Positions 11,733 to 57,740 of a stretch of 64,000 nt of DNA are shown here, one piece after another; the first letter of the stretch is position 1; every line of letters starts with the position of its first letter. The notes under the pieces were generated by a model. That model had not been told where the DNA came from, did not search any database, and saw only the letters and a program-made list of their open reading frames with translations. Source of the stretch: Candidatus Kapaibacterium sp. (GTDB lineage Bacteria; Bacteroidota; Ignavibacteria; Kapaibacteriales; UBA961); the NCBI GenBank assembly GCA_017302855.1, contig JAFLBY010000001.1, positions 9,208-73,207 on the forward strand, given 5' to 3'. The position numbers were made by a program, and so were the translations under genes.

Positions 11733-11797
11733 CGTAAGTCCTTGGAAAAATAAAAAAAACTACAGATAACTCAACTATATTAACTCACTTGAAGATA

Positions 11798-12031
11798 TTT
11801 TCCACAAAATTGCACACATTATGCTCATTTGGAGTAAAAAACACCATAATCTGTGGGGTAAACTCTCACTTTTTTTGTGGAGAACATAACTTTATCCACT
11901 TTTATGTGTAAAACATTACAATTATTCACAAAGTTTTCCACACAAATTTGGGGGGAAATTTTCTTTCTTTGTCTTTTGTACATAATCGCTTATATTACTT
12001 TTATCCACATTAGTTTTCCACATTTCCACAG
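11798..12031. promoter_or_regulatory. Cluster of DnaA-box-like 9-mers in an AT-rich intergenic region (candidate oriC or DnaA-regulated site)
   Basis: TTTTCCACA (11798), TGTGGGGTA (11852), TGTGGAGAA (11876), TTATCCACT (11892), TTATTCACA (11922), TTTTCCACA (11934), TTATCCACA perfect (12001), TTTTCCACA (12014), TTTCCACAG (12023). Confidence 0.35.
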
Positions 12032-12096
12032 GAGATAAAGTATTTTTACTATAAAAATTTAACTATTACTTAATACAAGAATAACTTTTTGCTCAT

Positions 12097-39994: not shown

Positions 39995-40030
39995 ATAGAG
40001 ATACTTGCCTATTTCTTCAGAAAAACTCTT

Positions 40031-40068
40031 GCTGCTTTTTGTGGCAAGAGTTTTTTTGTTTTTCTGCT
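40031..40068 (+). terminator. Rho-independent terminator after the GT2 gene
   Basis: ACTCTTGC-loop-GCAAGAGT followed by TTTTTTTGTTTTT. Confidence 0.45.
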
Positions 40069-40243
40069 TCATTATTTTCATTGTGATGATGCCATTTGTC
40101 GGGATGAAAAAATCCCGTCATTATGTCATCATACGAGAAAAAATACATCCACCCCGTCCTTCGGACACTCCCTCAAAACGGGAATTTTGAAATTCAGCGC
40201 GTCATGGAATCCCGCAGGGATGACATTATACTAGCAAATCTTT

Positions 40244-40273
40244 CCAAAAAACCTTCCCCTCCATCGGAGGGGT
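40244..40273 (-). terminator. Rho-independent terminator (minus strand) downstream of the CTD remnant and STAND gene
   Basis: CCCCTCC-gat-GGAGGGG hairpin followed on the minus strand by GGTTTTTTGG. Lies in a locally GC-rich segment. Confidence 0.4.
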
Positions 40274-40336
40274 GTCCGCAGGACGGGGTGGGTTCATTCC
40301 ATCAGACGCAGTCTGACGGGGTGGACGCATTTATCA

Positions 40337-40567
40337 CTACCTCACCACCATAAACAGAGCTTTTTGTCCTGTGGCGGGAATGCGTGCACAATACATACCT
40401 GTCTGCGATCTGCTTATGTCTATCGAATGTTCATATCCCTGATACATAAGCGAACCCTGCATATCGGCAATGAAGACCAAGGCATTATCTGTACCGGTAG
40501 GCGTGTGGTTGTGATGTGTTGGTATTTTAAACTTCTTGGTCATGGAGTTTGTTGGAATTAATTTCAA
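40337..40567 (-). pseudogene. Orphan T9SS C-terminal sorting-domain remnant (3' fragment of a disrupted secreted-protein gene)
   Basis: The 76-aa ORF ...ALVFIADMQGSLMYQGYEHSIDISRSQTGMYCARIPATGQKALFMVVR matches the T9SS CTD pattern. It has no upstream cargo domain, and its 5' end overlaps the STAND gene stop in another frame. Confidence 0.35.
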
Positions 40568-43500
40568 ACATCGATAACTCCAAGAAATTTATAAAACTTT
40601 CATAGAATGAATAGAAATTAGTTTCTATTTTATAATCATTTATAAGTTTCAGTGTGTTTCCGGGAAAAAAATACAAACTATGAAAATAGTTGATAGTGTT
40701 CACTTTTCCAACAATAGCATTAAATAAAATTGGTTTTATGCTTCTTTTAACTTCTTTTTTGGGAAACAACTGAAATAGTTTTAAATCCGACAACGAAGAG
40801 TGTAATCCATCAGAATAAGATGCTACTTCATCTGGCTTTAATTTCAGTTCGGAAATTATTTTTTTGTCATTTATAGTAAGTATTCCGTTGTTTAATCGTG
40901 ATTGACTATCTTGTCTGTATGAGTTGTTGTGATCTGAATATTCAGTATAAGGAATTCCAATGTTCTTAAGAGACTTTGTTTTTTTATTCCGTTTTGAAAT
41001 ACGAACTCTGAATTTGTTAACTTCTAATATGTCTCTAAACTGATTACATCTATTTGAACTGAGAATGTTTTGAATATCATTAAAATCTATTTGCCTATCA
41101 TATATGTTATGTTGAAGTAATCTTTCTATTGATAGATTAAAAATACTATCTGGAAAACAGTTAATATGATTTGTAGGTAAACTAAACCAAGATACTTCTA
41201 ATTTGTTAATATCAAAATACTTTACCAAGATGTCAATTATACTCGTGGAATGTTGTTCAATATATTCTTCTAAAAGATGACGTACTCCCTTTTCTGATAA
41301 AGTCTGAATAGATGCTATTAGTTTAATAGATTCTATTTCTTTAACAAGACCCTTTTCTTCAAAAACTGAAAGTATGGTGGGGATAAATAGAACAGAATAA
41401 TCCTTTCTTTGATAGTATTTTGTCCAAAAAGTAGAAATGCTCGAGATATCAATGGTTTTATTTAAATGCAAGTTCAGACGAATATAATTTAATATTTCAA
41501 TCCATAAGTCAAAACTACCCAATTGACTGTTTTTAATGATAAAGTCTGCTAGTGATAAATTTAAGTAATCGTTTGTTCTTGCAACATGGCCAAGTGCCAG
41601 TATGTTGCGTCTCGCATCTTTTAATATAGACTTTGCAAATGCAGCGGGAATACGTTTCTTTTCAAGAAATTCTCGTAAATATAATAAGGACTCTTCATCT
41701 TCAGTATAAAAGTATTTATTAATAGTCATTTTTAAGTCTAAATAATCAGATTGTAGTTTTTCGTGGATGAATAAATTTTCCAACACAAAGGTCATTTTTT
41801 CGACGAATTCATAGTTGTCGTTAGATTCTATCAAAGCTTCAATTTCTATATTAGATAGTGCAGATTTGTGTGCGTTAAAAAAGGTATCTTCTTTTGTTGT
41901 TTCGTCTAATAAATTTTCAAAAAAACTGTTTGTATTATAATGGTCATTACTAGAAAGATTAAGCAACAATGAGATATTCCCCGTTTTAATAAAGTAAAAC
42001 ATACCAAAAAGATAGTCTGAGCTTGTAAAGTCTTTCTCTGTATATCCATGAAATAACAATGATTTTATATAGGTGTATAAAAATTTATTGTTAGTTGAAA
42101 TATAATCCCTTGATATTATATTGATAATTAATGATAAATCATAATAATCTTTCACATCTAAATCATTGGGTGAAAGTTCAAACAATGATCCTCTAAGTTG
42201 TCCATAGAATGATTGGATAGCCTCAAAATCTACAGTACCACTAACAAGAACTTTAAACTCAGAAATGTTTGAGAATCTGAGAATGATTTCTCGTTTCATT
42301 TCCATATCTAGATAGAAGAAATCAAACCTTGTAAGAAATGCAACTTCTGAGTTAAGGATTGAGTTGTAAACAATCATTTTTACTGTCTTTTGTCGTTCAG
42401 AATAATCAATGTTTTGGTTACGTAAATAAGTATTAAAGCTGTCGTGCAATAAAGAAACTCTGTTTAGCTTCTTTTCAAATAAATAAGGGTACTCACTTAT
42501 AAATTCTGAAACACTAACTCCTAATTCTTTACCTAAAAATTTTTCTATTTCATGGTGCATGATAAAAGAACGACAACAAAGAAACAATGTCAATAAAGAT
42601 TTTGTGTTTACCTTGTCTTTAAAAATTTCATCATAATACTCGTCTATAGTCTTTAACGTATTTAATTCAGGTAGATTGTTGTGTTCTTTATAATGTTCTG
42701 CCAAATATTTGACTAAAATAGGATAACCATCTGTAATCGAATATATGCGACTACAAACATCGTAATCGGTAATGTGAAAAAGTTTATCAAGAACCTTTTT
42801 TGTTTGCTCCTTGTTCCAATTAATAAGTTCATGTTTACTCCACTCCCATTGATGTTTCAATGGTCTGGTTAAAACTATTGTTTTACACTTTGTTTGTAAT
42901 TTTTGGATAAAGTCAATGATTTTTTTTAACTCTTTGCTATCGTAGTTTTCAACGTGGTCAATCCCGTCAATTATGACTATTTTGTTTACCTCCCATAATT
43001 TTGATAAAACTTCATTCTCATTCCTGTTAACTTGATCATTAAACAGTTTCTTCGAAAAGTCAAAGATAAAATTTGAAAACTTTAGCCTTTGATTATACTC
43101 TTTATCTTGGCTTGAAATCCAAAATCTGTAAATTATATTGTTTGGATATTCTTGAGTCAGACTATTGACAAGATGGCTTTTGCCAACTCCAGGTTTGCCT
43201 TCTATTACTATAATATTTTCAACAAATAGATGATTTCTTCCGACATCAATTGTTTGTTCGGTCAAATTGGTATCGAAAACGAGAATTGTTGGCAAATCCT
43301 TTCTCGCTATTCTAAATTTCCGCTCATCTAAACATGAATTAAAAAATCTGTTTATAATAAGTTCCCTTTCTTGGTTCAAATTGTATAAATTGGAAATTCT
43401 CTCATCAACATTTTCTCTGTTTAAAGAAACAATGTAAACATTGTTTGAAATATATGCAGGAATTCCGAATATTTCACAATTTGGCGAAATCTCGATTTGT

Positions 43501-43781
43501 TTAAAAAATATAATATTAGTGAATTGTGACAATAAATGTTTTTTGTTTTTTATAATTACTGAGTTTTCTTTGAATCGAAGAGAGTTAAGAGAAATGTCAT
43601 CAATATCTTTAATCTGGATGCAAAATTTTTCGTTAGTAGATGTTACTATTAAATCATCAAAGTGATTGTTAGCGTTTACTTCCATTTCAATTGAATCAAT
43701 ACTACGTTCAACATCCATTTTTGCTAAAAACAAAGATGTTATTTGTTTTTGATATGTGTATCCTGTATAAGCGTTTTTCAT
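40527..43781 (-). CDS. STAND-class P-loop NTPase (NACHT/NB-ARC-like), Avs-like candidate antiviral sensor: N-terminal PD-(D/E)xK-like domain plus long C-terminal helical-repeat region
   Basis: Walker A GKPGVGKSHLVNSL, Walker B KIVIIDGIDHV and TIVLTRP motifs. ~190-aa N-terminal domain with FDDLIV...EKFCIQIK (D...QxK). ~700-aa alpha-helical C-terminal half. Confidence 0.7.
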   Translation of the reverse strand: MKNAYTGYTYQKQITSLFLAKMDVERSIDSIEMEVNANNHFDDLIVTSTNEKFCIQIKDIDDISLNSLRFKENSVIIKNKKHLLSQFTNIIFFKQIEISPNCEIFGIPAYISNNVYIVSLNRENVDERISNLYNLNQERELIINRFFNSCLDERKFRIARKDLPTILVFDTNLTEQTIDVGRNHLFVENIIVIEGKPGVGKSHLVNSLTQEYPNNIIYRFWISSQDKEYNQRLKFSNFIFDFSKKLFNDQVNRNENEVLSKLWEVNKIVIIDGIDHVENYDSKELKKIIDFIQKLQTKCKTIVLTRPLKHQWEWSKHELINWNKEQTKKVLDKLFHITDYDVCSRIYSITDGYPILVKYLAEHYKEHNNLPELNTLKTIDEYYDEIFKDKVNTKSLLTLFLCCRSFIMHHEIEKFLGKELGVSVSEFISEYPYLFEKKLNRVSLLHDSFNTYLRNQNIDYSERQKTVKMIVYNSILNSEVAFLTRFDFFYLDMEMKREIILRFSNISEFKVLVSGTVDFEAIQSFYGQLRGSLFELSPNDLDVKDYYDLSLIINIISRDYISTNNKFLYTYIKSLLFHGYTEKDFTSSDYLFGMFYFIKTGNISLLLNLSSNDHYNTNSFFENLLDETTKEDTFFNAHKSALSNIEIEALIESNDNYEFVEKMTFVLENLFIHEKLQSDYLDLKMTINKYFYTEDEESLLYLREFLEKKRIPAAFAKSILKDARRNILALGHVARTNDYLNLSLADFIIKNSQLGSFDLWIEILNYIRLNLHLNKTIDISSISTFWTKYYQRKDYSVLFIPTILSVFEEKGLVKEIESIKLIASIQTLSEKGVRHLLEEYIEQHSTSIIDILVKYFDINKLEVSWFSLPTNHINCFPDSIFNLSIERLLQHNIYDRQIDFNDIQNILSSNRCNQFRDILEVNKFRVRISKRNKKTKSLKNIGIPYTEYSDHNNSYRQDSQSRLNNGILTINDKKIISELKLKPDEVASYSDGLHSSLSDLKLFQLFPKKEVKRSIKPILFNAIVGKVNTINYFHSLYFFPGNTLKLINDYKIETNFYSFYESFINFLELSMFEINSNKLHDQEV

Positions 43782-44061
43782 TAATTACAAATAATATTAA
43801 CTTCTTTCATTACTTAAATTTCTTCTTCGGTCAGTTCGTAAAGTTTCTGAACTAATGTGTCAATTTGGTCTGTTTAAGTCATCTGTGCTTCCGATGGCGG
43901 TAGATCTCACACAGCGAAGTAAACCACCGTTTGTTTCTCCAAAACTACAAAACTTTGAAAACTCAGACAAATATGAAGTTCTCATATTTCATTATGATAT
44001 AGCGTATCCTTGCTTTGCAATTCAATGACTGTCACCCTTTTCATACAAGAGGAGTGTTGAA

Positions 44062-45235: not shown

Positions 45236-46627
45236 TTATTTTTTACCTTCACCCAATAAACGTACTTTCTTTTTCGCGCCTTTTACTTTTTTACATGCAT
45301 TGCGTGTGTCAATCACGACTTTACTGTGTTTGACAATCATCTCATAATCGAAAGAAGTATGGTCCGTGGTGATGACGGCAATATCGAATTTTTCAAGCAT
45401 TTGCGGCGTGAGTTTTTTCTCCGATTTTACTTTTTTGCCATGAATTTCTGTTTCGGGAATATATGGATCATAATAGCTGATATTTTTCATACCGTCTTCA
45501 AGTAATAATTCCGCAACTTTTAAGGCGGGAGAATGGCGTAAATCATCCACATCGCGCTTAAATGCCATGCCGAGTAAAAGAATTTTTGCTTTTTCCATTG
45601 TCACAGGTTGCCGTGCAATTTCACGCTCAATCATGGAACGCACATAAAAAGGCATGGACTCATTCACTTCGGCAGCAAGTGTGATAAAGTTGGTCACAAA
45701 ATCCACTTCCCTTGCCATCCATGATAAATAATAGGGGTCAATAAGAATACAATGCCCGCCAATGCCCGGTCCCGGGAAAAATGGCATAAAACCAAAAGGT
45801 TTGGTAGAAGCGGCTTCCACTACTTCCCATATATTTACACCAATCCTATCACATAATTGTGCTAATTCATTCACCAAAGCAATATTCACACTGCGGAAAA
45901 TATTTTCAAGTAATTTTTCCATTTCAGCAACTTCGGGAGTGCTGACAGCAATGACTTTATCAATAATAAGTTCATTGACAGCCACAGACAAAGCAGTGCA
46001 TGATGCGCTTACGCCACCCACAACAATAGGAGTATTACCCGTATGCCATGTTGTATTGCCCGGATCAATTCTTTCCGGTGAAAAAGCCAAATAATAATCT
46101 TTGCCTGCTTTTTTGCCCATGCGTTCCAAAATCGGCTGCACATATTTTGTCGTTGTACCCGGAAACGTGGTGCTTTTTAGAATAACAATATGTCCGTCGC
46201 GCAAATATTTGGCAACTTCTTCGGTTGAATGAACAATATGGGAAATATCCGGTTCTTTATTGGGGGTAAATGGCGTGGGTACGCATATATAGATGACATC
46301 ACATTCCCCGCAAACAGAAAAATCCGTCGTTGCGCTTAATGTCTTATTGGCAATGCACTGCGCCACATTCTCGGAGCTGATGTCTTGGATATAATTGTGC
46401 CCTTGTTGCAAAGCGGAGATTTTACGATTGTCAATATCAATACCGATGGTGCGAATGCCTTTCATCGCAAATTCTACGGCAAGTGGCAAGCCGACATATC
46501 CCAAACCAACCACACCGATGACGATGTCTTGGGAGCGAATACGAGAAAGAAGTGTGGTGGGGTCTGAGGAATACACCATTGCTTCGGAGGTGCTTTTCTT
46601 GAGTGAAGAGTGAGTTTTCTTTGCCAT
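45236..46627 (-). CDS. Nucleotide-sugar dehydrogenase (UDP-glucose/GDP-mannose dehydrogenase family)
   Basis: [22 protein letters not shown]-binding start and catalytic Cys region GGHCI. The ORF track extends to 46714; the internal Met at 46627 or 46579 is more plausible. Confidence 0.8.
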
Positions 46628-46974
46628 TGTGAGTATGAGTAATTGAATAAAATTGCTGTTGTAATAACAAGTGCCGTGCCATTGACGATGCACTATGACG
46701 AAACTTACAGTCAAAATTACTTAATTGCTTTGATTGGTTTGATAGAAAAGAGGTAATGGACAGGTACGAAGTCGCCAAAAATGCTGCAGAAAGTAATTGT
46801 GATGAAGAATGTGATTGATTTGAGTCAGTGTTCTTTCTTTGCTAATACGCAGATGTAAGATAATGCAGAAAAAGAAAGCACTTCCGTCCCGTCGCCACCC
46901 CTTCTAAAGGTATATTAGCGACGACGGGTTGACGCTTGTCATATATGTATCACATGATCTGTTTGGTCAATAGA

Positions 46975-47910
46975 CTATAGCGATTGAGATTTCAGACTTT
47001 CAATCATCGTCCTGATACCTTGTTTCGGAGCTGTGGCAGTGATGCCGAAACGTTGCTCAAATTTGGAACTGTCGAACATATAATCTTGCTCATATTGATA
47101 CATCATCTCAGGAAACTCTTTCAAAGAAGGAATAAATATCCCAAGCATTTTTATCATCCATAATGGCAAGTGTTGAATATCGGGTTTGACTTGCAGTTCT
47201 TCCGCTATAAGGTGAATCCATTGCAAAGTAGTTAAACATTCTTTTGTTGTCGGCACATGCCATACTTGATGAAAAGCATCGGGAGTATTGCCAAGTAAAG
47301 CTGTTGCCTTTGCCGCATCGGGCGTATAAGTAAAGGTATGGATTTTATTGACATTGCCAAAAGACTGTGCCTTTTTCCCTTTCAGCAAATTATCAACCAC
47401 CATAATACGAAGAGCACTGGTTTTATTGTCGGGTCCATAAAAATCGGCAGAGCGAGCAATTAATGCATTAAGAGAATTGTTCTCTACCTCTTTCATAATC
47501 ATTTCATGAATCCGCTGCCGTATCATACCTTTTTTGCTTGGAGCATTGATGGGTGATGTTTCCACCATGTGCGGTATAGCGGATGAGTCATACATATAGA
47601 CATTATCAAAAAACACCAGCTTTGCATTATGGTTTTTGCATGCCTGAATAACTGCTTGCATAAATGGAACCCATATTTGTTCCCACACATGCAATCTATA
47701 CTCAAAACCAACAGTTACATACACAATCTCACTGCCTGCCACTGCTGAGTCAATACTGTTTGTATCATGAAGATCGGCGGGATATAATTCATCCGAGTCA
47801 TTTACTTTTTGGGGCTTTCTGCTTACTAATCTGATATGGGGAGTGTAATGAGATAACTCTTTTGCTAAAGGTATGCCGATAGCACCGCCTGCACCGAGTA
47901 TTGTTTGCAT
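46975..47910 (-). CDS. NAD-dependent epimerase/dehydratase-family (SDR) protein
   Basis: MQTILGAGGAIGIPLAKEL Rossmann start; 311 aa. Confidence 0.6.
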   Translation of the reverse strand: MQTILGAGGAIGIPLAKELSHYTPHIRLVSRKPQKVNDSDELYPADLHDTNSIDSAVAGSEIVYVTVGFEYRLHVWEQIWVPFMQAVIQACKNHNAKLVFFDNVYMYDSSAIPHMVETSPINAPSKKGMIRQRIHEMIMKEVENNSLNALIARSADFYGPDNKTSALRIMVVDNLLKGKKAQSFGNVNKIHTFTYTPDAAKATALLGNTPDAFHQVWHVPTTKECLTTLQWIHLIAEELQVKPDIQHLPLWMIKMLGIFIPSLKEFPEMMYQYEQDYMFDSSKFEQRFGITATAPKQGIRTMIESLKSQSL

Positions 47911-47969
47911 ATATAGTCCTTACTATGTGAAATTATTAACTGTCAGAATCCCGAAAAGATATATAATCC

Positions 47970-49034
47970 TTAGGCTTCAATCAATTCATTTACTTCTTCA
48001 TTCATTACTTCTTCATTCATTACTTCTTCATTCATTACTTCTTCATATACACAACTGTTTACCAAAGCATTTGCAATGTGCCACATTAAGACAGGTGGAA
48101 CAGCATTGCCAATTGCTCTGTATTGTCTATTCTCTGAAACACTGTCTAACGTAAATGTTAGCGGAAAAGATTGAATGTTTGCTGCTTCTCTTGGTGTAAA
48201 TCTTCTGTAACGTTCACCAACCATTAATACAGGGTCCGTTCCATTCAAACTGACTTTTGCAAGATGTGCACTGATTGTGTTACAGGGCTGTTCTAAATCT
48301 TGTACTCGTCCTTTGTTCATCTTTTCTCTTACTCGCAACATTCCATCAATGGCTCTTTGGCTGAAAAACCATTTTTCATCTTTGTGAGCTTCTTTATCAA
48401 TAACCTGTTTTAATTTTACTTTTGAACCGTTCAATGTGTTTGGTCTTGGAAATCTAAAATTAAAATAATCGTCAAAATCTCTGAAGCCAACAATAAAAAT
48501 GCGTTCGCGTTTTTGAGGAATACCAAATTCTGACGCATTTAACAGCTTAAAATGAATGTGATAACCTGCTTTCTCAAATTCGTTTACAATCATAGGGAGT
48601 GCTTTTCCTTTGTTTGCAGAAAGTAAACCTTTAACATTTTCTCCAATGAAAAAACGTGGCTGTTTTTCTTTCAGAATTTTTACCATCTCAAAAAACAATT
48701 TTCCTCTATCGTCTTTGTAGCCTAATCTGGGTGGGTTCTGTGCACTGATAGAAAATGATTGACAAGGAAAACCACCTAACAGAATATCGTGGTCAGGAAC
48801 TTCGTTTGGTATGATAGCTCTAACGTCTTTTATCTCACATTTATGCTCAAAATTATCGTTGTAAATTTTTGTTGAGTAACTATCGTTATCGACGGCATAC
48901 ACAACCTCAAAAGGTAAGGCAGCGTAATGATTGTCAAGAAAATCGAAATTTCCTTGAATACCTAAATCCATTCCTCCACAACCACAGAAAAGAGATGAGA
49001 CCTTTAATTTGTTATTTCCAGCAGTTTGTGCCAT
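47970..49034 (-). CDS. DNA (cytosine-5)-methyltransferase (M2 of the RM operon) with a C-terminal EEVMN peptide-repeat tail
   Basis: Motif I LFCGCGGMDLG, motif IV GGFPCQSFS, ENV motif. C-terminus (EEVMN)x3-4. Confidence 0.85.
   Translation of the reverse strand: MAQTAGNNKLKVSSLFCGCGGMDLGIQGNFDFLDNHYAALPFEVVYAVDNDSYSTKIYNDNFEHKCEIKDVRAIIPNEVPDHDILLGGFPCQSFSISAQNPPRLGYKDDRGKLFFEMVKILKEKQPRFFIGENVKGLLSANKGKALPMIVNEFEKAGYHIHFKLLNASEFGIPQKRERIFIVGFRDFDDYFNFRFPRPNTLNGSKVKLKQVIDKEAHKDEKWFFSQRAIDGMLRVREKMNKGRVQDLEQPCNTISAHLAKVSLNGTDPVLMVGERYRRFTPREAANIQSFPLTFTLDSVSENRQYRAIGNAVPPVLMWHIANALVNSCVYEEVMNEEVMNEEVMNEEVNELIEA
47985..48050. repeat. 15-bp tandem repeat (ttcattacttcttca, 3 perfect copies plus 1 variant) at the 3' end of the methyltransferase gene
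   Basis: Seen directly; in-frame, 5 aa per unit. Confidence 0.6.
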
Positions 49035-50446
49035 TGTCCTGATATTTTAGAAAATTCAACAACTAAGTTTTTATCAACTTTTAAATTACCTAATTTGAAT
49101 TGTTTAAATGGGTTTTGAATAATAAAGATGTTCTTGCTCTTATCGTTAATTACCAAGTAATAGACAAAATAACTGTCCCCTAATGTTTCTGCACTGTCCC
49201 ATTCGTTAGGCGTGAGTTTGAAACGATTATTGTTAATTGCTTTTCGTGATTTAGTTGTTTTTACTTCAATATATCGTTTTTTTTGAGGTATTTCGATACT
49301 TTGTAGGTCATATCCAACACCAAGAGGTGTCGGGATTTTGTTTATTAAGTGTTGACGGTTTGAACCACCTCTTGTTCTCAAATATTCATGTGCTAAAATT
49401 AACGTTTCACCATAATCCCCAAATATTTTTGTAGGTACTTTTCTATCTCCTTTGATGCGTGAGTAATACTCTTGAATAAGAGTAGATATGTTCTGTACTT
49501 CTTGTTCTTCTAAATGAGGGGCAAACGCTTCAATATTATCAAAGTTATTTACATAATCAAACCAAAGCTCTTCTAGTTTTCCAATTTCAGAATTTTTTGT
49601 TTCTTCTTCTAAATTGTAATATCTGTCATACTCACCAAACCATGTATTGTTTTGCAAGTGAAAGTTAATTGCTTCTATGTTTTTGTGATTCAGATAATAA
49701 TAATAACCTGTTCCTTTATGGTGCAAAAGATTGGCTAAAACCATGTAATCCAAAATGTCGCCAGCGTACCGATTAGTATCACCTTTTGATGGAAATTCGC
49801 CTGTTCGTTCGTTTCTTAATGCTTCGTAATTATATTCGTATTCCACTTTGTCTTTTCTGTTCTCTAGAATGAGATTTACAACTTCGTTTGCTTGCCTTTT
49901 TCCTGTTGTAACTCGAAGGTCGAAGTAAGCGCATTGCGTGAGTTCTTCTACTGTTAAGCTAAATGGTTTTCCTGTAATTTTTTCTCCCTCAACAAATAAA
50001 TTAAGTATGAATTGACAAGGTCTAAATTTTATACCAGCTTCAATTTGCTTAATTGTATTTTGAGATTTAATGTGTCCACCTGGGTATTGAAATGAAAACA
50101 AAAAGTAATTAAAAAATTCATCCAAATATTGATTGTTTGCAAGCCTCTTTGCTGTTAAGCCGGGTTCGGAGAAACCGTTCTTTTCTTGAATAAAACCAAA
50201 CAACGCTGAAATTTCAGTCCGCCAATTATCTATTGTCTTTTGTGCTGCTGTTGTGTTTTTTTTAAAACCAAACAATACCTTGTTTAATTCATTTTTAAAA
50301 TTGTTTTTTGATAAAACGGGCATTTCTGAAATTGTTGTTGCTACATACAATAAAACTTCTTCTACGTCATTTTTGAAACGTGGTCTTACATGATGTAATC
50401 TAAAAAAATACTCATCAGGTATTCTGTATGATTTTATTCTGCTCAT
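49004..50446 (-). CDS. Putative type II restriction endonuclease (C-terminal DUF3883-like PD-(D/E)xK domain)
   Basis: 480 aa. C-terminal ...GYDLQ...KKRYIEVKTTKS...FKLTPNEW...YFVYYLV is a D...EVK nuclease core. Sits between two m5C methyltransferase genes with overlapping start/stop. Confidence 0.5.
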   Translation of the reverse strand: MSRIKSYRIPDEYFFRLHHVRPRFKNDVEEVLLYVATTISEMPVLSKNNFKNELNKVLFGFKKNTTAAQKTIDNWRTEISALFGFIQEKNGFSEPGLTAKRLANNQYLDEFFNYFLFSFQYPGGHIKSQNTIKQIEAGIKFRPCQFILNLFVEGEKITGKPFSLTVEELTQCAYFDLRVTTGKRQANEVVNLILENRKDKVEYEYNYEALRNERTGEFPSKGDTNRYAGDILDYMVLANLLHHKGTGYYYYLNHKNIEAINFHLQNNTWFGEYDRYYNLEEETKNSEIGKLEELWFDYVNNFDNIEAFAPHLEEQEVQNISTLIQEYYSRIKGDRKVPTKIFGDYGETLILAHEYLRTRGGSNRQHLINKIPTPLGVGYDLQSIEIPQKKRYIEVKTTKSRKAINNNRFKLTPNEWDSAETLGDSYFVYYLVINDKSKNIFIIQNPFKQFKLGNLKVDKNLVVEFSKISGQWHKLLEITN

Positions 50447-51480
50447 AAGTATTTCATAATTTCATTTGCTAACACAGCTGCTAATATTGGAGGAACAGCA
50501 TTGCCTACCTGTTTGTATTGGCTCGTTTTACTTCCTAAAAAAATGAATGAATCTGGAAAGGATTGTATTCTCGCACTTTCTCTAACAGTAGGCACACGAT
50601 TGTATTTGTAATGAAAATGATGTCTGTGTCCTGTGTCAATAGTAAAACTTGGCTTCTTGCTGTTTAGTCTCGTCCAAGCAATATTTACATTCCTTGTTTT
50701 TCGTAATTCTTTAGGCAAGTCTTTATAGTTTCCGCCATCGGGAACTAATGAAATAATATGTGTTGTTTGCTCACTATGGTTAGTTGTTTCGTGATTGTAA
50801 ATACCCTTTGACCCTTCTCTAATTAATCTTTGATAATGAGATTTAGGTTTAGTTGTATATTTTGTCCCGTTTTCTAACGAATTTTTAGGCAAATCTGAAA
50901 TTGCATCTTTCGTATTTATAGGGGTTTTAGTTGTTGGTTCTGGGAAAACAAACTCTTTGTTGCTCTTTGTTCCAATAAAGAAAGCACGTTTTCTATTCTG
51001 CGGAACTCCATAATCAGAGGCTAATAAAATTTTGTAAACTACGGTGTAACCAAGTTTTTCAAAATCACTGAGAATTGTCTCTTTTACAATACCTTTTCCC
51101 ATAGAAATAATGTTTGGCACATTTTCCATTACAAACGCCTTAGGCTTGTAAAAACTAACAAAACTCAAAAATGATTTGTAAAGTTGATTGCGCTCGTCAT
51201 CAATTATTCTTTTTCCTGCAATAGAAAAACCTTGACAAGGAGGACCTCCAATAATCACATCTATACTTTTTATTCCTGTTTTTTTTGAAATTTCTTTCGC
51301 TGTCTCCGTAAATAAATCGGCTACAATTCCTTTTGCATTTTTGTGAGTGTTTTCAAAAGTTACAATCGCATCTTTCCAATTGTCAATTCCCAAAAGTACA
51401 TCATAGCCAGCTTCGATGAATCCATAAGAAAGTCCACCGCAGCCACAAAACAAGTCTATTACTGTTGGCTTCTTTTTCAT
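50443..51480 (-). CDS. DNA (cytosine-5)-methyltransferase (M1 of the RM operon)
   Basis: IDLFCGCGGLSYGF, GGPPCQGFSIAGKR and ENVPN motifs. Confidence 0.85.
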   Translation of the reverse strand: MKKKPTVIDLFCGCGGLSYGFIEAGYDVLLGIDNWKDAIVTFENTHKNAKGIVADLFTETAKEISKKTGIKSIDVIIGGPPCQGFSIAGKRIIDDERNQLYKSFLSFVSFYKPKAFVMENVPNIISMGKGIVKETILSDFEKLGYTVVYKILLASDYGVPQNRKRAFFIGTKSNKEFVFPEPTTKTPINTKDAISDLPKNSLENGTKYTTKPKSHYQRLIREGSKGIYNHETTNHSEQTTHIISLVPDGGNYKDLPKELRKTRNVNIAWTRLNSKKPSFTIDTGHRHHFHYKYNRVPTVRESARIQSFPDSFIFLGSKTSQYKQVGNAVPPILAAVLANEIMKYL

Positions 51481-51499
51481 TTTCTAACTTGATAATGTC

Positions 51500-51808
51500 T
51501 CATTTTGTGTTCATATTCTTCAAATAGTTTACCTTTTCTTCTGCAACCACCAATGTTTCGGTAGGGCAGTTATAAGCATACATCTTTTTTGCAAATTGAT
51601 CTCCAAAATATTCAATCTTTAATCTTTCAATATCAAGACTAAAAACTATTGCTAATTTGGTTAATCGCTTTTCGTCAAACTCTCTCTTCCCATTTTCGAT
51701 TTTGCTAAGATTTGCAGAATCAAGGTCAAGACGGAATGCAAGTTGCGTTAAAGTCAAGCCATTGTCTGTTCTTAGTTTCTTGATGTATTCACCAAAAGTT
51801 GCCTTCAT
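51500..51808 (-). CDS. XRE-family HTH regulator, candidate RM controller (C) protein
   Basis: FGEYIKKLRTDNGLTLTQLAFRLDLDSANLSKIENGKR HTH_3. First gene of the C-M-R-M operon. Confidence 0.6.
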   Translation of the reverse strand: MKATFGEYIKKLRTDNGLTLTQLAFRLDLDSANLSKIENGKREFDEKRLTKLAIVFSLDIERLKIEYFGDQFAKKMYAYNCPTETLVVAEEKVNYLKNMNTK

Positions 51809-51826
51809 AAGATTATACCTCGAAAC

Positions 51827-51843
51827 TTGTCAATCATTGACAA
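51827..51843. promoter_or_regulatory. 17-bp palindrome TTGTCAAT-C-ATTGACAA 19 bp upstream of the controller gene (candidate C-box operator)
   Basis: Seen directly; perfect inverted repeat around a single central base. Confidence 0.45.
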
Positions 51844-52002
51844 ATTTAACAATAGTTTTTGGTTAAACAATCTCTATTGATTCTGCTCTCCTGTGTTCTA
51901 TCACCTATGTTTGTCTAACTGTGCTGTTCTTTCGGATGACCAATCTATTCATATTATACCCCTCAATAACCATTTGCCCCAGAAAGCGGCTCATTTCTAT
52001 TA

Positions 52003-52096
52003 TCCATCGGAAGAAATAGGGCTTTGTTTCGGTCATCTTCGCCGCCAATCGGAAGAAAAGTAGTTTCGTTTCGGTCATCTTCGCCGCCCATCGCCT
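52003..52096. repeat. Imperfect ~44-bp direct repeat x2 (core tttcggtcatcttcgccgcc)
   Basis: Seen directly. Confidence 0.5.
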
Positions 52097-52242
52097 TGTA
52101 TGAATCAGATTCTCTTTTGTATAGGGTAAAAAGGGGCTGAGATATATCGAAAATGCAATGAGATGAGGCAAAGTTTTGGCTTTATGAACCGAAAACTGCC
52201 TGTTTTGCCCTAAAAACGCGGAAAGTTGTATAAGAAATGGCG

Positions 52243-52557
52243 GTTTCCTGCTCAATTCAAGTGGTTTCCTGTTCAATTCAAGTGGTTTCCTGTTCAATTC
52301 AAGTGGTTTCCTGTTCAATTCAAGTGGTTTCCTGTTCAATTCAAGTGGTTTCCTGTTCAATTCAAGTGGTTTCTTGCTCAATTCAAGTGGTTTCCTGTTC
52401 AATTCAAGTGGTTTCTTGCTCAATTCAAGTGGTTTCCTGTTCAATTCAAGTGGTTTCCTGTTCAATTCAAGTGGTTTCCTGTTCAATTTAAGTGGTTTCC
52501 TGTTCAATTTAAGTGGTTTCCTGTTCAATTTAAGTGGTTTCCTGTTCAATTTAATGA
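52243..52557. repeat. Tandem array of about 14.5 copies of a 21-bp unit (ggtttcctgttcaattcaagt) with a few point variants (cttgctc; caattta)
   Basis: Seen directly. The array is head-to-tail with no spacers, so it is not a CRISPR array. Confidence 0.9.
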
Positions 52558-52796
52558 GGTTTTGCAGCATCCGATGAAGGTTTTGATACATTTCATTCGC
52601 TCTTTATGGTATATGGTCGAGGTTTTTGTGTATCCGAGAGGGGCTTCAGGGCATTTGTCTGCGTTTTTTATGAATATGATTAAGAAGATTCCTCACACAA
52701 TGCGGTTTTTTGTGCATTTGAGCGGAAGGATGAGCCATTCGTTGCAAGAGTTTGTGCATCCGAAGCAATCGTTATTGCTTGTTTTGATGTGTTTTG

Positions 52797-53720
52797 TTAT
52801 GATTGCTGCGTATTGAGTATAGCCCTAAGAGAGTCATGTTGTTGTTGGGAAATCATTGCATAGCTGTATGCGATGGTCGCGGTGGCATTGCTGAAGTATT
52901 TGTATGAAGTCTGAATGTCGGTAGTATCTGCCAGAGCATCAATGTGATGACTGACGGTATGGGTATCGCCGCGAGAGATGGGTCCGGTCAAGGGAGGAAT
53001 GTCCGCGTCGAGTGTGTTGAGGCAATTTTCTACTGCGGTGAGAATGATGGGTGGTAAAAAGAGTTCGGGTTCTATGCCTGCTTGGTTTGCTAATGATTTT
53101 GCATGGGTTATTGCTGCCACAAGAAAGTTCGATGCCGCCACTGCCGCGGCGTGGTATTGTGCTTTGTGTTGGCGGGTATAGTCGCTAAGAATGATGGGAT
53201 TGCCGCCCAAAGCCATGACGAAAGCGGAAAGTAAGTCTTCGCTGTCGCTCATGCAATCAATGCCCCATGCGATGTCACGCAAGACGGTATCGGTTTCGCC
53301 CGTGAAGGTTTGGAAGGGATGAATGGCAGCACAGATCGCGCCGTTCATCATACATTCGGTTAAGGGTTCTATGCTGTATGCGCCGGAACAATGCACGATG
53401 GTACATCCGGCGAGAGATGCTCCAAAATGCGCTGCCACATCGGCAGACACTGTCTCAATGGCACTATCAGGCACGGCAAGGATAAGGAGTTGGGGCGGAT
53501 GGGGTATATAGTCAAGTTCTTGGAGTAAGGGGATTTCCGTTGGCAATATGGAGGTAAGTTGCTCCAAACGCGCACCGGAACGAATCAGCATCCATTCAAG
53601 TTTGTGCATTTTTGCAGTTGCCATTGCTAATGTTGTCCCCAATTTTCCACCACCGATAATGCCGACGGTCGGTACTGTGTCAGCGGAGCCAAAGACCCCA
53701 CCCCCTGCATAGTGTGCCAT
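52797..53720 (-). CDS. Rossmann-like / DUF2520-domain protein (predicted NAD(P)-dependent oxidoreductase)
   Basis: VGIIGGGKLGTTLA dinucleotide-binding start; 307 aa. Confidence 0.45.
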   Translation of the reverse strand: MAHYAGGGVFGSADTVPTVGIIGGGKLGTTLAMATAKMHKLEWMLIRSGARLEQLTSILPTEIPLLQELDYIPHPPQLLILAVPDSAIETVSADVAAHFGASLAGCTIVHCSGAYSIEPLTECMMNGAICAAIHPFQTFTGETDTVLRDIAWGIDCMSDSEDLLSAFVMALGGNPIILSDYTRQHKAQYHAAAVAASNFLVAAITHAKSLANQAGIEPELFLPPIILTAVENCLNTLDADIPPLTGPISRGDTHTVSHHIDALADTTDIQTSYKYFSNATATIAYSYAMISQQQHDSLRAILNTQQS

Positions 53721-53723
53721 AAC

Positions 53724-55181
53724 TTACCTTTCGTTTACTTCAAGTGTATATCCTTCTTTTGTATCTTTCAGTGTATATCCTTTTTCTGCAATGGCAGCAC
53801 GCAAACTGTCGGCTTCGGCAAAGTTTTTGTCTTTTTTTGCTTGGAGTCTGCGTTCGGCAAGTGCAATAATCTCATCGGGAATGATGATATGTTCTTGCGG
53901 CTTTGCTTCTATGTTCCACACGCCGAATATGTCATTGATAGTACGAAATTCCTCAATAAGAGCCAATTTGCTTTCGGCTGTCAATGTGGCGGGATTGGTA
54001 TTGTTGATAAAGCTGAAGAGAATCTCAAGTGCTTTGGGTGTGTGAAGATTATCAGCCAAAGCGGTTGCCACATCGTGGAATACAGTTGCCGAAGCATCGC
54101 CATTGATGCGGGTGTCGAAGAGCGCATAGACAAAATCTTGGACACGTTTTCTGGCTTTTTGCACAGCATCCAAACCGCTGAATGTGAAGTTTATCACAGA
54201 GGAATAATGTCCCGAGAGCATGAGGAAGCGAATATCGAGCGGATCATACCCTTTGTCGGTGATGTCACGCAAGGTATAGAAGTTGCCGAGCGATTTACTC
54301 ATTTTTTTGCCTTCTACTTCCAAGAATTCATTGTGGCACCAATAGTTGGCAGTGTCCAAACCATAGCCGGCTTTGCTTTGGGCTATCTCATCTTCATGAT
54401 GGGGAAATCGCAAGTCCACGCCGCCTGTGTGAATATCTAAGGGTAATCCGAGAATGTCTTGCCCCATAGCGGAACATTCGATATGCCATCCGGGACGACC
54501 GGGGAGATTGTAACCATTATAGGGGAAATCCCAGTATGGTTCATTGTTCTTACGTGCTTTCCAAAGGACAAAATCACTGACACTTTCTCTGTCATACTCA
54601 TCGGCATCAATGCGCACTCCGGCTTTGAAATGCTCTGTATCAACGGTAAAGAGTTTGCCATAATGCTCTTGTGCCATCCAATCGCCCAAGGCGAAATAGA
54701 CATTGCCCTCAGAAACATAGCCATAGCCATTGTCAATGATATTGCGTATGAGTTGTTGCATCGGCTCAATATAATCCGTTGCGCGGGGCATGGTATGGAA
54801 ATGCGCCGTTTGAATACCGACGCTTTGTATGTCTTCAATGAATTTTTGAGCAAAATATTCCGTAAAGAGTCGAAGATTATGGTTGGGGTCATCGGATTGT
54901 ATTCCCATGTCATTTAGCCATTCTTTACTGCCTATTGCGCTGTCACGTATTGTTTTGTCATCAATATCGGTGATATTCATAACCCATTGTACATCGTACT
55001 TGCCCACAATGCGCAAGACTCTTTGCAGCAGATCGGAAAATAAGAATGAGCGAATATTGCCGATGTGAATATAATTATAGACCGTGGGTCCGCATGTATA
55101 TACTTTTACTGTTGAGCCGCCGGAAACGGATTGGAAATCTTCTATTGTTTTGGATAAAGTGTTAAATAATCGTATGGTCAT
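53724..55181 (-). CDS. cysS: Cysteine--tRNA ligase
   Basis: CGPTVYNYIHIGNIRSF (HIGH region) and KMSKSLGN motif; 485 aa. Confidence 0.9.
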   Translation of the reverse strand: MTIRLFNTLSKTIEDFQSVSGGSTVKVYTCGPTVYNYIHIGNIRSFLFSDLLQRVLRIVGKYDVQWVMNITDIDDKTIRDSAIGSKEWLNDMGIQSDDPNHNLRLFTEYFAQKFIEDIQSVGIQTAHFHTMPRATDYIEPMQQLIRNIIDNGYGYVSEGNVYFALGDWMAQEHYGKLFTVDTEHFKAGVRIDADEYDRESVSDFVLWKARKNNEPYWDFPYNGYNLPGRPGWHIECSAMGQDILGLPLDIHTGGVDLRFPHHEDEIAQSKAGYGLDTANYWCHNEFLEVEGKKMSKSLGNFYTLRDITDKGYDPLDIRFLMLSGHYSSVINFTFSGLDAVQKARKRVQDFVYALFDTRINGDASATVFHDVATALADNLHTPKALEILFSFINNTNPATLTAESKLALIEEFRTINDIFGVWNIEAKPQEHIIIPDEIIALAERRLQAKKDKNFAEADSLRAAIAEKGYTLKDTKEGYTLEVNER

Positions 55182-55445: not shown

Positions 55446-57740
55446 TCAAGAGGAAACAGCAGCGCATCCTATTTGATTGGTGACACGCACAGAATATATG
55501 CCATTGTTTGCAGGTACGAAACGATTGCCCGTTGCATTGGGAATAGGATTTCCGTCGAGCAACCATTGAATGATTCCGGTAGCATTAACGGAAAGAGTGT
55601 CGCCTTTGCGGGCAATGACGGGTTTGATATTTTCTAAGACTGTTACTGTGACGGTATCACGCCCGATGCAACCATTTTTATCGGAAACGATAACGGTATA
55701 GACAGTTGTTGTTGTGGGTTTTACTCTGGCGACTGCGTTAGTACGTCCGGACACAATACTTGCTGCGGGTGACCAAGAGAATGTATAGGGGCTTGTTCCT
55801 CCCGAGATAATGTCTGTGCCACCGATGGTAAGAGTGGAGTCTTTGCAAATGGTGAACGAGGGTATGGTTGCAATGCGTGGAGCATCATAGACAGTAATAT
55901 AGTTTTTGCGAATAACGGTATCTGCCCATTCGCCATTATTTGCAATTAAGCGAACAGAATACTGACCGGGCTTGGTGAAAGTGGTTGTAGGATTTTCTTT
56001 AAAATCATCATTTGCACCATCGCCATCGGTATCCCATAAATAAAATTCCGGTGAATTAACCGATAAATTTTTGAAGTCCACCGTCAAAGGTGCGCAACCT
56101 TCTATCGGGGTTTTGGTGTCATGTGAGAACCATGCTTTGGGGTAGTCCGCGCTGCATTGATCTGTGGGTATGCGGCTGAATTTTTCGACTGCACTGCAAC
56201 GCAAAGCTATACTGCTATCATTAATCACAATACCTGCGGGTATATCGGTGAAGGCATTGAGCGAACGGCGGAATGTACTGGTATCAATAGCAAAATTCAT
56301 TACTTTGCTTGGGTCAATGATGTGTCCAAGTTGATGTGCATGACCTAACTCATGGGTTATAATTGATTCAAGGTCATATTTACCAACGGAATCTAATTCC
56401 GTTGAATAATTCCAATTGATGTCCTTATTAATAACCATATCCATTTCGATAATGGTGAAATAACGCATTTCATCAGACCCTAAGCATGGTTGATTTACCC
56501 AAATACTGCTTGTATAAGCAAGTACACCAACAAAAGGCATAGGACAACCGACGCTCGATAAAGCAACGGTGTTGATATTGTCATTTTTTGCACAATTTGC
56601 AGTTGAGGTTTCATCGCTATAGCTGAAATTTATGCCAGTGCCGCAACGCCATGTCTCCAAAGAGCGTTTAAAGACATTAACGGCTTGCGTGTTTTGTTTG
56701 AGTGCAAAACTCGGGCGAAAGGTATAGCCGCCAAAACCATTTTGATTAATGAAGTGCGGTCGAAACGTTTCATACACAGGCGGGTTGGTTTGATTTGTCT
56801 GGTATGTACGGCTGTTCACGGAAGAAATCACGGTAAGAACTTGGGTACTTGTGACACTCAGCCCGGATTCGCGTTTGACACGGACAAGACCTGTGCCGGC
56901 AGATACATTTTTCGTTTCGTTTAAGGTGTACCAATCTCCCCCGGGTACAATAACTTTGATGATACCCGGTTGCCAAAGAATAATATGATTAGGAGGTACG
57001 CTTATCCATGTTTGTCCCCCATCATCGGCATTTTTGAACTCAACGGTCGCTTGATTACGAAAAGTGCCGAAACTTACTCCATCCTCTAAGAAAATGGTCA
57101 ATGTATCTTTAAGTCCACCGCGAACTAAAGTTGGGGTGATGCTGATTATGTCCGCTGCCACAGATTGATGCGTTTGCTCATCTTTATGAGGGATTGCAAT
57201 AAAATCGTCAGCGTTAAAAGAAGATACAATGTTTTCGTTGCCGCCTATATGGTTTCGTATGGGGATATAGAGTTCATGAGAAATATCTGTATAGCGGTGA
57301 AACATATCGGAGGCAAAGCCCTCATGTTTATGATAGGTAACAAGCGATTGTTGAGCAGCAAAGGCATAAAAACGAGGTATGGATGATGAGGTTTGCAAAT
57401 CGGGTCGATGCGATACCATAAACAAACCGGTTTGTCCATTATGCGCGGTAAATGTTGGTTCGACTACTTGAAAAGTGCCATTGTAAAAACCACCCGGGCT
57501 TATGACCTCTACTTCGGATGCAGCAACCGTACCTTTGAATACTTTGTGAACAGTTACACGGAACACCGTATAAATGGTATTGTCTAACGATAATGAGTAA
57601 GAAGAAATAACCGTTCCTTCTATAACAATATCAGCCATGCCAACACGTAAAGAAAGTGGTAATTTGACCATATCACTATGGGAGAATGCTGTGCCCAAAG
57701 TAGCGGCAAATAACAAAGCAATAAACAGGAGCGTTTTCAT
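55446..57740 (-). CDS. Secreted metzincin-family zinc metalloprotease with Ig/PKD-like domains; the T9SS sorting domain lies downstream in another frame
   Basis: Signal peptide; HELGHAHQLGH (HExxHxxGxxH); C-terminal beta-sandwich domains. Confidence 0.7.
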   Translation of the reverse strand: MKTLLFIALLFAATLGTAFSHSDMVKLPLSLRVGMADIVIEGTVISSYSLSLDNTIYTVFRVTVHKVFKGTVAASEVEVISPGGFYNGTFQVVEPTFTAHNGQTGLFMVSHRPDLQTSSSIPRFYAFAAQQSLVTYHKHEGFASDMFHRYTDISHELYIPIRNHIGGNENIVSSFNADDFIAIPHKDEQTHQSVAADIISITPTLVRGGLKDTLTIFLEDGVSFGTFRNQATVEFKNADDGGQTWISVPPNHIILWQPGIIKVIVPGGDWYTLNETKNVSAGTGLVRVKRESGLSVTSTQVLTVISSVNSRTYQTNQTNPPVYETFRPHFINQNGFGGYTFRPSFALKQNTQAVNVFKRSLETWRCGTGINFSYSDETSTANCAKNDNINTVALSSVGCPMPFVGVLAYTSSIWVNQPCLGSDEMRYFTIIEMDMVINKDINWNYSTELDSVGKYDLESIITHELGHAHQLGHIIDPSKVMNFAIDTSTFRRSLNAFTDIPAGIVINDSSIALRCSAVEKFSRIPTDQCSADYPKAWFSHDTKTPIEGCAPLTVDFKNLSVNSPEFYLWDTDGDGANDDFKENPTTTFTKPGQYSVRLIANNGEWADTVIRKNYITVYDAPRIATIPSFTICKDSTLTIGGTDIISGGTSPYTFSWSPAASIVSGRTNAVARVKPTTTTVYTVIVSDKNGCIGRDTVTVTVLENIKPVIARKGDTLSVNATGIIQWLLDGNPIPNATGNRFVPANNGIYSVRVTNQIGCAAVSS

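Follow-up and report, generated by a model that had tools for sequence, protein, structure and literature searches.

Intergenic tandem repeats are familiar in bacteria as variable-number tandem repeats (VNTRs) or minisatellites, for example the mycobacterial interspersed repetitive unit (MIRU) loci and the Wolbachia loci VNTR-105 and VNTR-141. Short direct repeats also form plasmid iterons, classically 17–22 bp long at 21–23-bp spacing (e.g. 7 × 22 bp in the R6K gamma origin, 4 × 22 bp in pPS10, and those of P1 incA), and partition centromeres such as sopC of F (12 × 43 bp) and parC of R1 (10 × 11 bp), whose arrays bind many copies of one protein. Here we describe a gene-less block of 21-bp periodicity, ~0.86 kb long, that adjoins a DUF2520 gene in Candidatus Kapaibacterium sp. 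(assembly GCA_017302855.1, contig JAFLBY010000001.1). The window is the whole 64-kb stretch of this contig that was analyzed, and positions given without a contig name refer to it. We read the block, with a probability of roughly 45%, as a horizontally acquired, dispensable non-coding satellite whose units are gained and lost through in-register slippage or unequal recombination. A literature search returned nothing relevant to it.

The locus is a bacterial non-coding VNTR or minisatellite: its unit falls in the 10–100-bp range, it is polymorphic by whole units, and it is non-coding. Like the MIRU and Wolbachia VNTRs, it consists of head-to-tail units in non-coding DNA, with strain-variable copy number, whole-unit changes and diverged terminal units. 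Unlike typical VNTRs, it is a single-copy locus common to clades whose housekeeping proteins are, by inference, ~55–60% identical, it occupies three genomic contexts, and the whole 0.9–1.1-kb element stays in strict 21-bp phase through ~40 units. With plasmid iterons it shares direct repeats in the 17–22-bp range set two helical turns apart, a conserved core with a variable linker, and degenerate copies nearby. In contrast to them, it lacks an adjacent rep gene, DnaA boxes and an AT-rich unwinding element, carries 12–21 rather than 3–9 copies, is chromosomal and single-copy, and was not found in any of the plasmid or phage records searched. The long tandem array recalls partition centromeres, but the unit has no clear dyad, the block can be lost, and none of the three contexts contains genes for a partition NTPase or a centromere-binding protein (parA/parB, parM/parR or tubZ/tubR). 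As in clustered regularly interspaced short palindromic repeats (CRISPR), regular short direct repeats in non-coding DNA break short-read assemblies; unlike in CRISPR, the units abut without spacers, no leader is present, and the flanking open reading frames (ORFs) scanned (47–57 kb) include no cas genes.

One periodic block of 21-bp units

The sequence at 51809–52796 matches the original prediction of a repeat-packed stretch between a C-protein gene and DUF2520. As had been claimed, no convincing gene lies there, and both long ORFs (51905–52591 on the minus strand, 52226–52816 on the plus strand) are translations of the repeat. The predicted tandem array of 14.5 units is present, and its count is refined to 15: Tandem Repeats Finder (TRF) reported period 21 with 14.8 copies (96% matches, score 564, 52242–52551), and the 21-mer GGTTTCCTGTTCAATTCAAGT matched 15 times at ≤3 mismatches, always within 52242–52556, against 0.01 matches expected. 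The three variant positions noted earlier were recovered (unit positions 7, 10 and 17), together with a truncated last unit. The GC content of 52001–54000 is 0.45, above the window mean.

The register extends beyond this homogenised core (Table 1). The duplication first given as 44 bp measures 42 bp (2 × 21), with halves at 52006–52047 and 52048–52089 that are 83% identical; it is polymorphic, present as two copies in the window and in the related contig L087 and as one in contig L130. Downstream, four copies of a related motif had been described at 47–84-bp spacing. Their relation to the 21-mer holds: GGTTTTTGTGCATCCGA-like matches start at 52558, 52621, 52705 and 52747 (4 versus 0.30 expected), which places them 63, 84 and 42 bp apart, multiples of 21 in the register of the array (+1). 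Printed out in 21-nt register, the right flank resolves into a run of decayed units, and the left flank is periodic too. Autocorrelation at lags 21, 42, 63 and 84 gave z = 3.2–6.7 in the window flanks (4.7–6.3 in the right flank) and up to 8 in relatives, compared with −0.2 to 2.3 for the coding control 51500–51808 and 1.2 to 2.6 for DUF2520. Because the duplication and the four motif copies are decayed units of one 21-bp register, the whole of ~51934–52800 is a single periodic block of ~40 units in varied decay, 15 of them homogenised.

The flanks themselves are heterogeneous. The distal part of the left flank (51934 to ~52142) is lineage-specific; the proximal part (~52143–52223) is ~70–75% identical to other lineages, with indels, and homology to the Ignavibacteria contig L004 begins at 52143. 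In the tail, a hairpin (AAGCAAT-CGTT-ATTGCTT, 52764–52781) is followed by GTTTTGATGTGTTTTG on the plus strand and could serve as a candidate terminator of a plus-strand transcript or of DUF2520; a consensus terminator scan did not call it, as it has too few G–C pairs.

A natural deletion bears directly on the unity of the block. In L130, an 827-kb contig whose CysS is 97% identical in protein (synonymous divergence 0.16), position 52223 is joined to 52748 (...GCGGAA followed by GAGTTCGTGCATCCGA...), which leaves the left flank and the last 49 bp and removes 524 bp (52224–52747). The homologous AGTT positions lie 525 bp, or 25 × 21, apart, and the loss fits in-register recombination between the outermost decayed units. 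Since L130 lost ~25 units in register, the block behaves as a single array with a dispensable core. Separately, a 45-kb Logan contig with an identical CysS (L152, SRR28640826) ends 32 nt past the DUF2520 stop and other Logan contigs end 272 nt past it; this sample may contain strains of both kinds, some that carry the block and some that lack it.

Relatives, copy number and probable horizontal sharing

Relatives were recovered by several routes. The unit was found in Ignavibacteria bacterium UBA2373 (L004) in a scan of species-representative genomes, and a pattern scan of metagenomes yielded arrays only in L019, L087 and L089 among the matches listed, most of the others being single chance matches. 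Further contigs, including those of 1.0, 1.13 and 4.0 Mb, were found via P0001, the spurious ORF of the right flank, and via the neighbouring HtpG. Absence of the motif elsewhere was to count against an iteron or binding-site role; the motif does recur in other genomes, but there it occurs only as the same single-copy element. Seventeen assemblies span the array fully (the window and 16 others, including contigs of 135 kb, 1.0 Mb, 1.13 Mb and 4.0 Mb), and because it is spanned in 16 other independent assemblies the array is no assembly artefact. Short-read Logan contigs break inside it.

The instances fall into two deeply divergent clades, A (the window's Kapabacteria lineage) and B/C (including UBA2373 and a 4.0-Mb contig). 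In lineage A the element lies between an epimerase gene and DUF2520–cysS, with 15 copies in the window and 20 in L087. Lineage B carries it between argB–argE–argH and a 175-aa ORF–gatA–tatA (13 copies in L004, 21 in L089), and lineage C between DUF559 and htpG, with 12, 15, 16, 16, ~17, 18, 18 and 20 copies in eight assemblies whose HtpG proteins are identical or differ by one residue (P0124/P0125). The suggestion of a hypervariable VNTR, together with its proposed check of copy number across strains, is thereby confirmed: the 17 spanned assemblies hold 12–21 copies, among strains with nearly identical flanks. All array lengths are divisible by 21 apart from that of one long-read contig, which contains indels.

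Between A and B/C, only ~52143–52745 can be aligned. The right flank is the best-conserved unique part (83–86% identity, no indel over ~192 nt in an eight-sequence alignment), and nhmmer matched it only to known instances of the element. Unit and variant types are common to all three lineages, the double variant GGTTTTCTGTTCAATTTAAGT among them. Their left-flank amplifications differ: a 42-bp duplication in A, 4.1 copies of another 21-mer in B and a ~126-bp duplication in C. In L004 this second 21-bp array (3562–3647, ATATCAGCAAAACGATTGTTC, 96% matches) stands upstream of the main one, and the ~126-bp duplication of lineage C occupies the corresponding place.

The restriction–modification (RM) genes beside the block are a separate matter. 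L087 matches the window at 46562–47932 (98.9%, blastn) and then resumes at 51934; in the junction alignment, 4.0 kb of the window (47933–51933), a BpuJI-like type IIS RM cassette, replace ~86 bp of the empty site. L130 passes from DUF2520 directly to the epimerase gene without the cassette, and no RM genes lie near the element in lineages B and C. Judged from these junctions, the cassette is a later insertion beside the array. Because L087 and L130 keep the locus without it, the array does not belong to an RM/defence island; the earlier link to that island fails here and in the unrelated contexts of the two other lineages. The block neither depends on the RM cassette nor serves as the replication origin, and it can be lost.

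Several lines of evidence argue for horizontal sharing. In the CysS match list, only A itself, the lineage of L130 and three Logan-only clusters exceed 63% identity, and no CysS with the source signature of lineage C (JGI, NCBI, ENA, Logan) appeared among the best 120 matches, down to 56% identity plus one 52% outlier. The HtpG list has a gap between 59% and 79%, with no cluster at 79–81% showing lineage A's source combination (ncbi + lgn). On these hit lists, rather than on identified orthologues, A and C orthologues are probably ≤~60% identical. L087 (lineage A) and L019 (lineage C) come from the same metagenome, and one record is labelled bioreactor sludge. The element is absent from the syntenic sites of L131 and L132 (after DUF2520) and of L133–L136 (htpG followed by dnaJ); nor was it seen in L147, where 1.9 kb of repetitive extragenic palindromic (REP)-like repeats follow htpG on a scaffold with two N gaps. 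Such a patchy distribution would fit transfer rather than vertical conservation. Horizontal transfer is thus suggested by the three unrelated contexts, a right flank more alike than the orthologues, the shared metagenome and the absence in intermediates.

REP-like repeats directly flank the element in lineages B and C, and no terminal inverted repeats or target-site duplications were found at the B-versus-C homology boundaries, which are fuzzy and embedded in these repeats. The intergenic REP-like repeats (CCCCGACGGGAAGG, ATCCCnnnGGGATTnAAnGTTTATAGAAA) were seen at 2400–2900 and 3760–4060 of L004, ~6660–7000 of L128 and 5861–7777 of L147, a 93%-HtpG relative of lineages B and C in which they form a tandem junk region after htpG. 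Their full pattern was not found in the 64-kb window.

Rates of change differ along the block. Between the window and L087, synonymous divergence of genes (pS) is 0.029–0.065 (mean ~0.043). The left flank, with differences at 22 of 290 positions (0.076), evolves no more slowly than synonymous sites and looks neutral. The right flank and tail (52557–52796) differ at 5 of 240 positions (0.021; 5 of 191 in the right flank), about half the synonymous rate, and by this comparison the right flank is at most weakly constrained. Variants affect 10 of the 21 unit positions, about as expected from 14 random events.

Weighing the explanations

We propose that the core (~52143–52747) was acquired by transfer between deeply divergent Kapabacteria/Ignavibacteria lineages of the same bioreactor-type communities. 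Copy number changes quickly as whole units are added or removed in register, with the central 15 kept near-identical, and the same process made the left-flank 42-bp duplication and collapsed ~25 units into one in L130. The satellite would persist because replication slippage and unequal recombination regenerate the array. Physically, the chief effect would be a phase-coherent tract with strong predicted curvature, as 21 bp equal two helical turns. Most likely, the block has no sequence-specific cellular function and is neutral or selfish satellite DNA.

A number of observations weigh against this satellite. Bacterial genomes have a deletion bias, and ~0.6 kb of functionless DNA persisting in two clades over ~15% divergence is unexpected. 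The 191-nt right flank has accumulated 31–33 substitutions and no indel between clades, and its rate of about half the synonymous one, although borderline (5 observed versus ~10 expected), points the same way. Even units that are only ~45% alike stay in the 21-bp phase, which holds across ~40 units, both clades have an identical unit consensus, and every spanned array has at least 12 copies, the sole exception being the complete loss in L130. The genome distance between A and B/C was inferred from hit lists rather than measured on identified orthologues, and the curvature is a wedge-model prediction that comes out similar for shuffled 21-mers. Strict phase, the indel-free right flank, the identical consensus and the lack of short arrays keep two alternatives alive, a protein-binding array and an unstructured RNA.

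The first of these is a serious if unlikely contender. The block would be an orphan DNA array, iteron- or centromere-like, in which each 21-bp unit is one candidate site, with a conserved core TCAATTYAAGYGGTT across the unit junction and a variable 6-bp linker. The sites would lie on one helix face, and a protein of the host or of a mobile element would coat the tract and bend it. Such an array might serve in titration or as a decoy, in handcuffing, in segregation or in nucleoid organisation, and it could also be what is left of an integrated replicon. In its length and exact two-turn phasing the unit matches classical iterons, the phase holds throughout, within-unit variation is concentrated at positions 6–10 and 17 with GGTT and CAAT...AAG fixed, and the apparent horizontal spread, with retention in two clades and no array below 12 copies, would suit a binding function. 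The putative oriC of this genome is only ~40 kb away from the array. Predicted curvature is also the highest in the window: in a wedge model, 10 of the 12 most curved 315-bp segments of the window fall in the block, with an end-to-end/contour ratio of 0.15–0.33 versus a mean of 0.85. However, arrays of shuffled units are about equally curved, so the curvature is a generic effect of the two-turn period that any 21-bp repeat would show, and the unit variants look as random mutation would leave them. Pfam annotation of the neighbouring genes in all three contexts shows no gene for Rep, ParA/ParB or another DNA-binding protein within ~10 kb, and neither the unit nor the flank had a match in PLSDB, INPHARED or IMG/VR, collections with few or no Kapabacteria elements. 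No DnaA box TTATCCACA (≤1 mismatch) occurs within 45543–54002, and the block is deleted in L130. For the mobile-element iterons or protein-binding sites first suggested, unit length and phasing fit; a Rep or Par partner within that distance and plasmid, phage or viral counterparts in those collections were not found.

We give a somewhat lower chance to a functional, horizontally exchanged gene-less DNA (or RNA) module, whose 12–21 phased binding sites would recruit a conserved host protein or titrate the initiator or partition protein of a mobile element present in the same bioreactor communities, with selection keeping length and phase.

An unstructured non-coding RNA is improbable. Transcribed from either strand, the repeats could form a multivalent sponge that takes up an RNA-binding protein or small RNA, or the conserved right flank could give rise to a small RNA of ~180–210 nt. 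The element stands alone between convergent genes in lineages B and C, its right flank is the most conserved part, a sigma-70-like site (TTGATA-16-TATGGT, 52583–52610) is kept in other lineages, the plus-strand hairpin and T-run at 52764–52796 have an analogue in lineage C, and several plus-strand pairs vary only from G–C to G–U. Yet promoter-like sites are at chance level (3 versus 2.5 expected), the Bacteroidetes-type promoter pattern, likewise at chance level, has no match in the block, the terminator scan called none, and L130 lost the block. Rfam gave 0 matches at the gathering threshold (whole window) and at E up to 5 (51850–52850). Folding of the right flank against shuffles gave z = +1.13 on the plus and −1.09 on the minus strand, and covariation (RNAalifold and pair counts) did not exceed shuffles on either strand (146/500). 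As in CsrB/RsmZ and ToxI RNAs, many short motifs are repeated in non-coding sequence, and the minus-strand unit carries ACAGGAAAC, with a CAGGAA that resembles the CsrB CAGGA(U/A)G repeat. Unlike in CsrB/RsmZ, the GGA is poorly conserved and is not presented by hairpins: it overlaps unit position 7, which ranks second in variability, and is missing from ~27% of units and also from flank motifs of B and C. A CsrA sponge was rejected on this variability and on folding that does not exceed shuffles. A ToxIN-like type III toxin–antitoxin system was also rejected: ToxI units are 34–48 nt and precede a toxin gene, whereas the unit here is 21 nt and no toxin gene follows the array, the lone downstream ORF having no family or homologues and a low predicted local distance difference test (pLDDT) score.

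A repeat-encoded or small protein, in the plus frame (FKWFPVQ heptads running into MKVLIHFIRSL...) or the minus frame (LNRKPLE heptads), is effectively excluded, and this part of the original prediction is disfavoured. Gene callers do call these ORFs (P0001), the right flank is indel-free, and the plus frame is nearly stop-free over 570–740 nt in all lineages (0–1 stops in A, 1–2 in C, 3 in B), with an open stretch in the right flank that only 3.6% of shuffles match in length; the near-open frame is explained by descent from a stop-free 21-mer. Against a protein, substitutions between lineages fall on the codon positions as 10/7/12, without a third-position excess, and the ratio of nonsynonymous to synonymous differences (pN/pS) in the ORF frame (0.58–0.66) is matched by other frames among the six. 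TGA stops interrupt the array in lineage B. In both B and C, TAG separates the array from the ATG of MKVLIHF, and TAA stops the N-terminus of the minus-strand ORF; the C-terminal tail of this ORF lacks conservation. Neither long ORF matches a Pfam, PHROG or NCBIfam family. When 1.84 billion protein representatives were searched with a profile, the only hits were P0001, which is the ORF cluster of the element itself, and two junk ORFs made of repeats; a word-indexed search of 5.8 billion clusters returned only P0001, i.e. the element itself. The mean AlphaFold pLDDT of the ORF product is 56.

A regulatory or binding array of the adjacent RM island, or an oriC, has next to no probability: although the long, non-coding, repeat-rich block adjoins the C-protein gene and its C-box palindrome, the cassette is missing from L087 and L130, lineages B and C have no RM genes near the element, and oriC was rejected because the DnaA-box cluster and skew minimum lie at ~11.8–12.0 kb, with no boxes near the array and the block deleted in L130.

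Neighbouring features and meaning for Kapabacteria

Table 1. Coordinates of the periodic block, its neighbours and the DnaA boxes in the window.
Feature	Position	Strand	Remarks
Left flank of periodic block	51934–52223		Right edge of RM-cassette insertion at 51934
Tandem duplication, 42 bp (2 × 21)	52006–52093		Inside left flank; TRF period 42, 2.1 copies
Left-most degenerate unit	52224–52241		AGTTGTATAAGAAATGGC; left breakpoint of the ~524-bp in-register deletion in L130
Core array, homogenised	52242–52556		15 head-to-tail GGTTTCCTGTTCAATTCAAGT units; plus strand T-rich; final unit ending ...TTTAATG
Right flank	52557–52747		Nine decayed in-register 21-mers, consensus ~nGGTTTTtgtGCATccGag; holds the four motif copies of the original prediction
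Tail	52748–52796		Last two or three degenerate units; adjoins DUF2520 stop codon (52797); kept in the L130 deletion allele
DUF2520	52797–53720		Right of the block
cysS	53724–55181		Right of DUF2520; the two genes 3 bp apart in the window; NCBI assigns the identical CysS to a Candidatus Kapabacteria metagenome-assembled genome
12-bp palindrome	51823–51847		Likely C-box
Helix-turn-helix C-protein gene	51500–51808	minus	
C5 methyltransferase	50443–51480	minus	
BpuJI-like endonuclease (BpuJI_N)	49004–50446	minus	
Second C5 methyltransferase	47970–49034	minus	354 aa
DnaA boxes	11798, 11876, 11892, 11922, 11934, 12001, 12014	minus for 11876	12001 perfect

The DnaA-box cluster comprises 7–8 boxes (≤1 mismatch, one perfect) at 11798–12022, within 225 bp, inside an intergenic gap (11735–12096) and at the position of the cumulative GC-skew minimum and sign change; the gap is the putative chromosomal replication origin. 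It separates an RpiB-like ORF from thiamin pyrophosphokinase, and dnaA is not adjacent (AnmK occupies 10138–11295).

Several side observations concern the surrounding genes. The C-terminus of the 354-aa methyltransferase (47970–48050) encodes a short tandem repeat, EEVMN EEVMN EEVMN EEVN. In strains with the same DUF2520 protein, genes for a Vsr endonuclease and an HNH_2 protein and a 47-aa ORF stand between cysS and DUF2520 (L001, 8595–9897; L002, 1979–3317). A large secreted protein is encoded at 55446–57740, and its L001 orthologue matches Peptidase_M10, PKD and Por_Secre_tail; the gene is ~83% identical in DNA between strains whose cysS and DUF2520 share 98–99%, which suggests a recombination mosaic or a diversifying surface gene. 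Farther away, GC content drops to 0.29–0.33 (versus ~0.38) at 40001–44000, where a 1084-aa ORF (40527–43781) lies beside nucleotide-sugar genes; this may be a horizontally acquired surface-polysaccharide region.

For Kapabacteria in bioreactor metagenomes, the locus is a clean, highly discriminating VNTR strain marker, and its array explains why short-read assemblies break at this point. It is also a worked example that a repeat block beside a defence cassette need not belong to that cassette. A gene-less 0.6-kb satellite common to lineages whose housekeeping proteins are probably only ~55–60% identical is unusual. One outcome would be that non-coding satellites may spread and endure in bacterial genomes more easily than expected from deletion bias. 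The other would be that the array may function in phase, as a DNA-binding tract or as RNA, in a way absent from current databases; if it were an orphan iteron or centromere array on the chromosomes of distant bacteria, it would be a kind of element not previously described.

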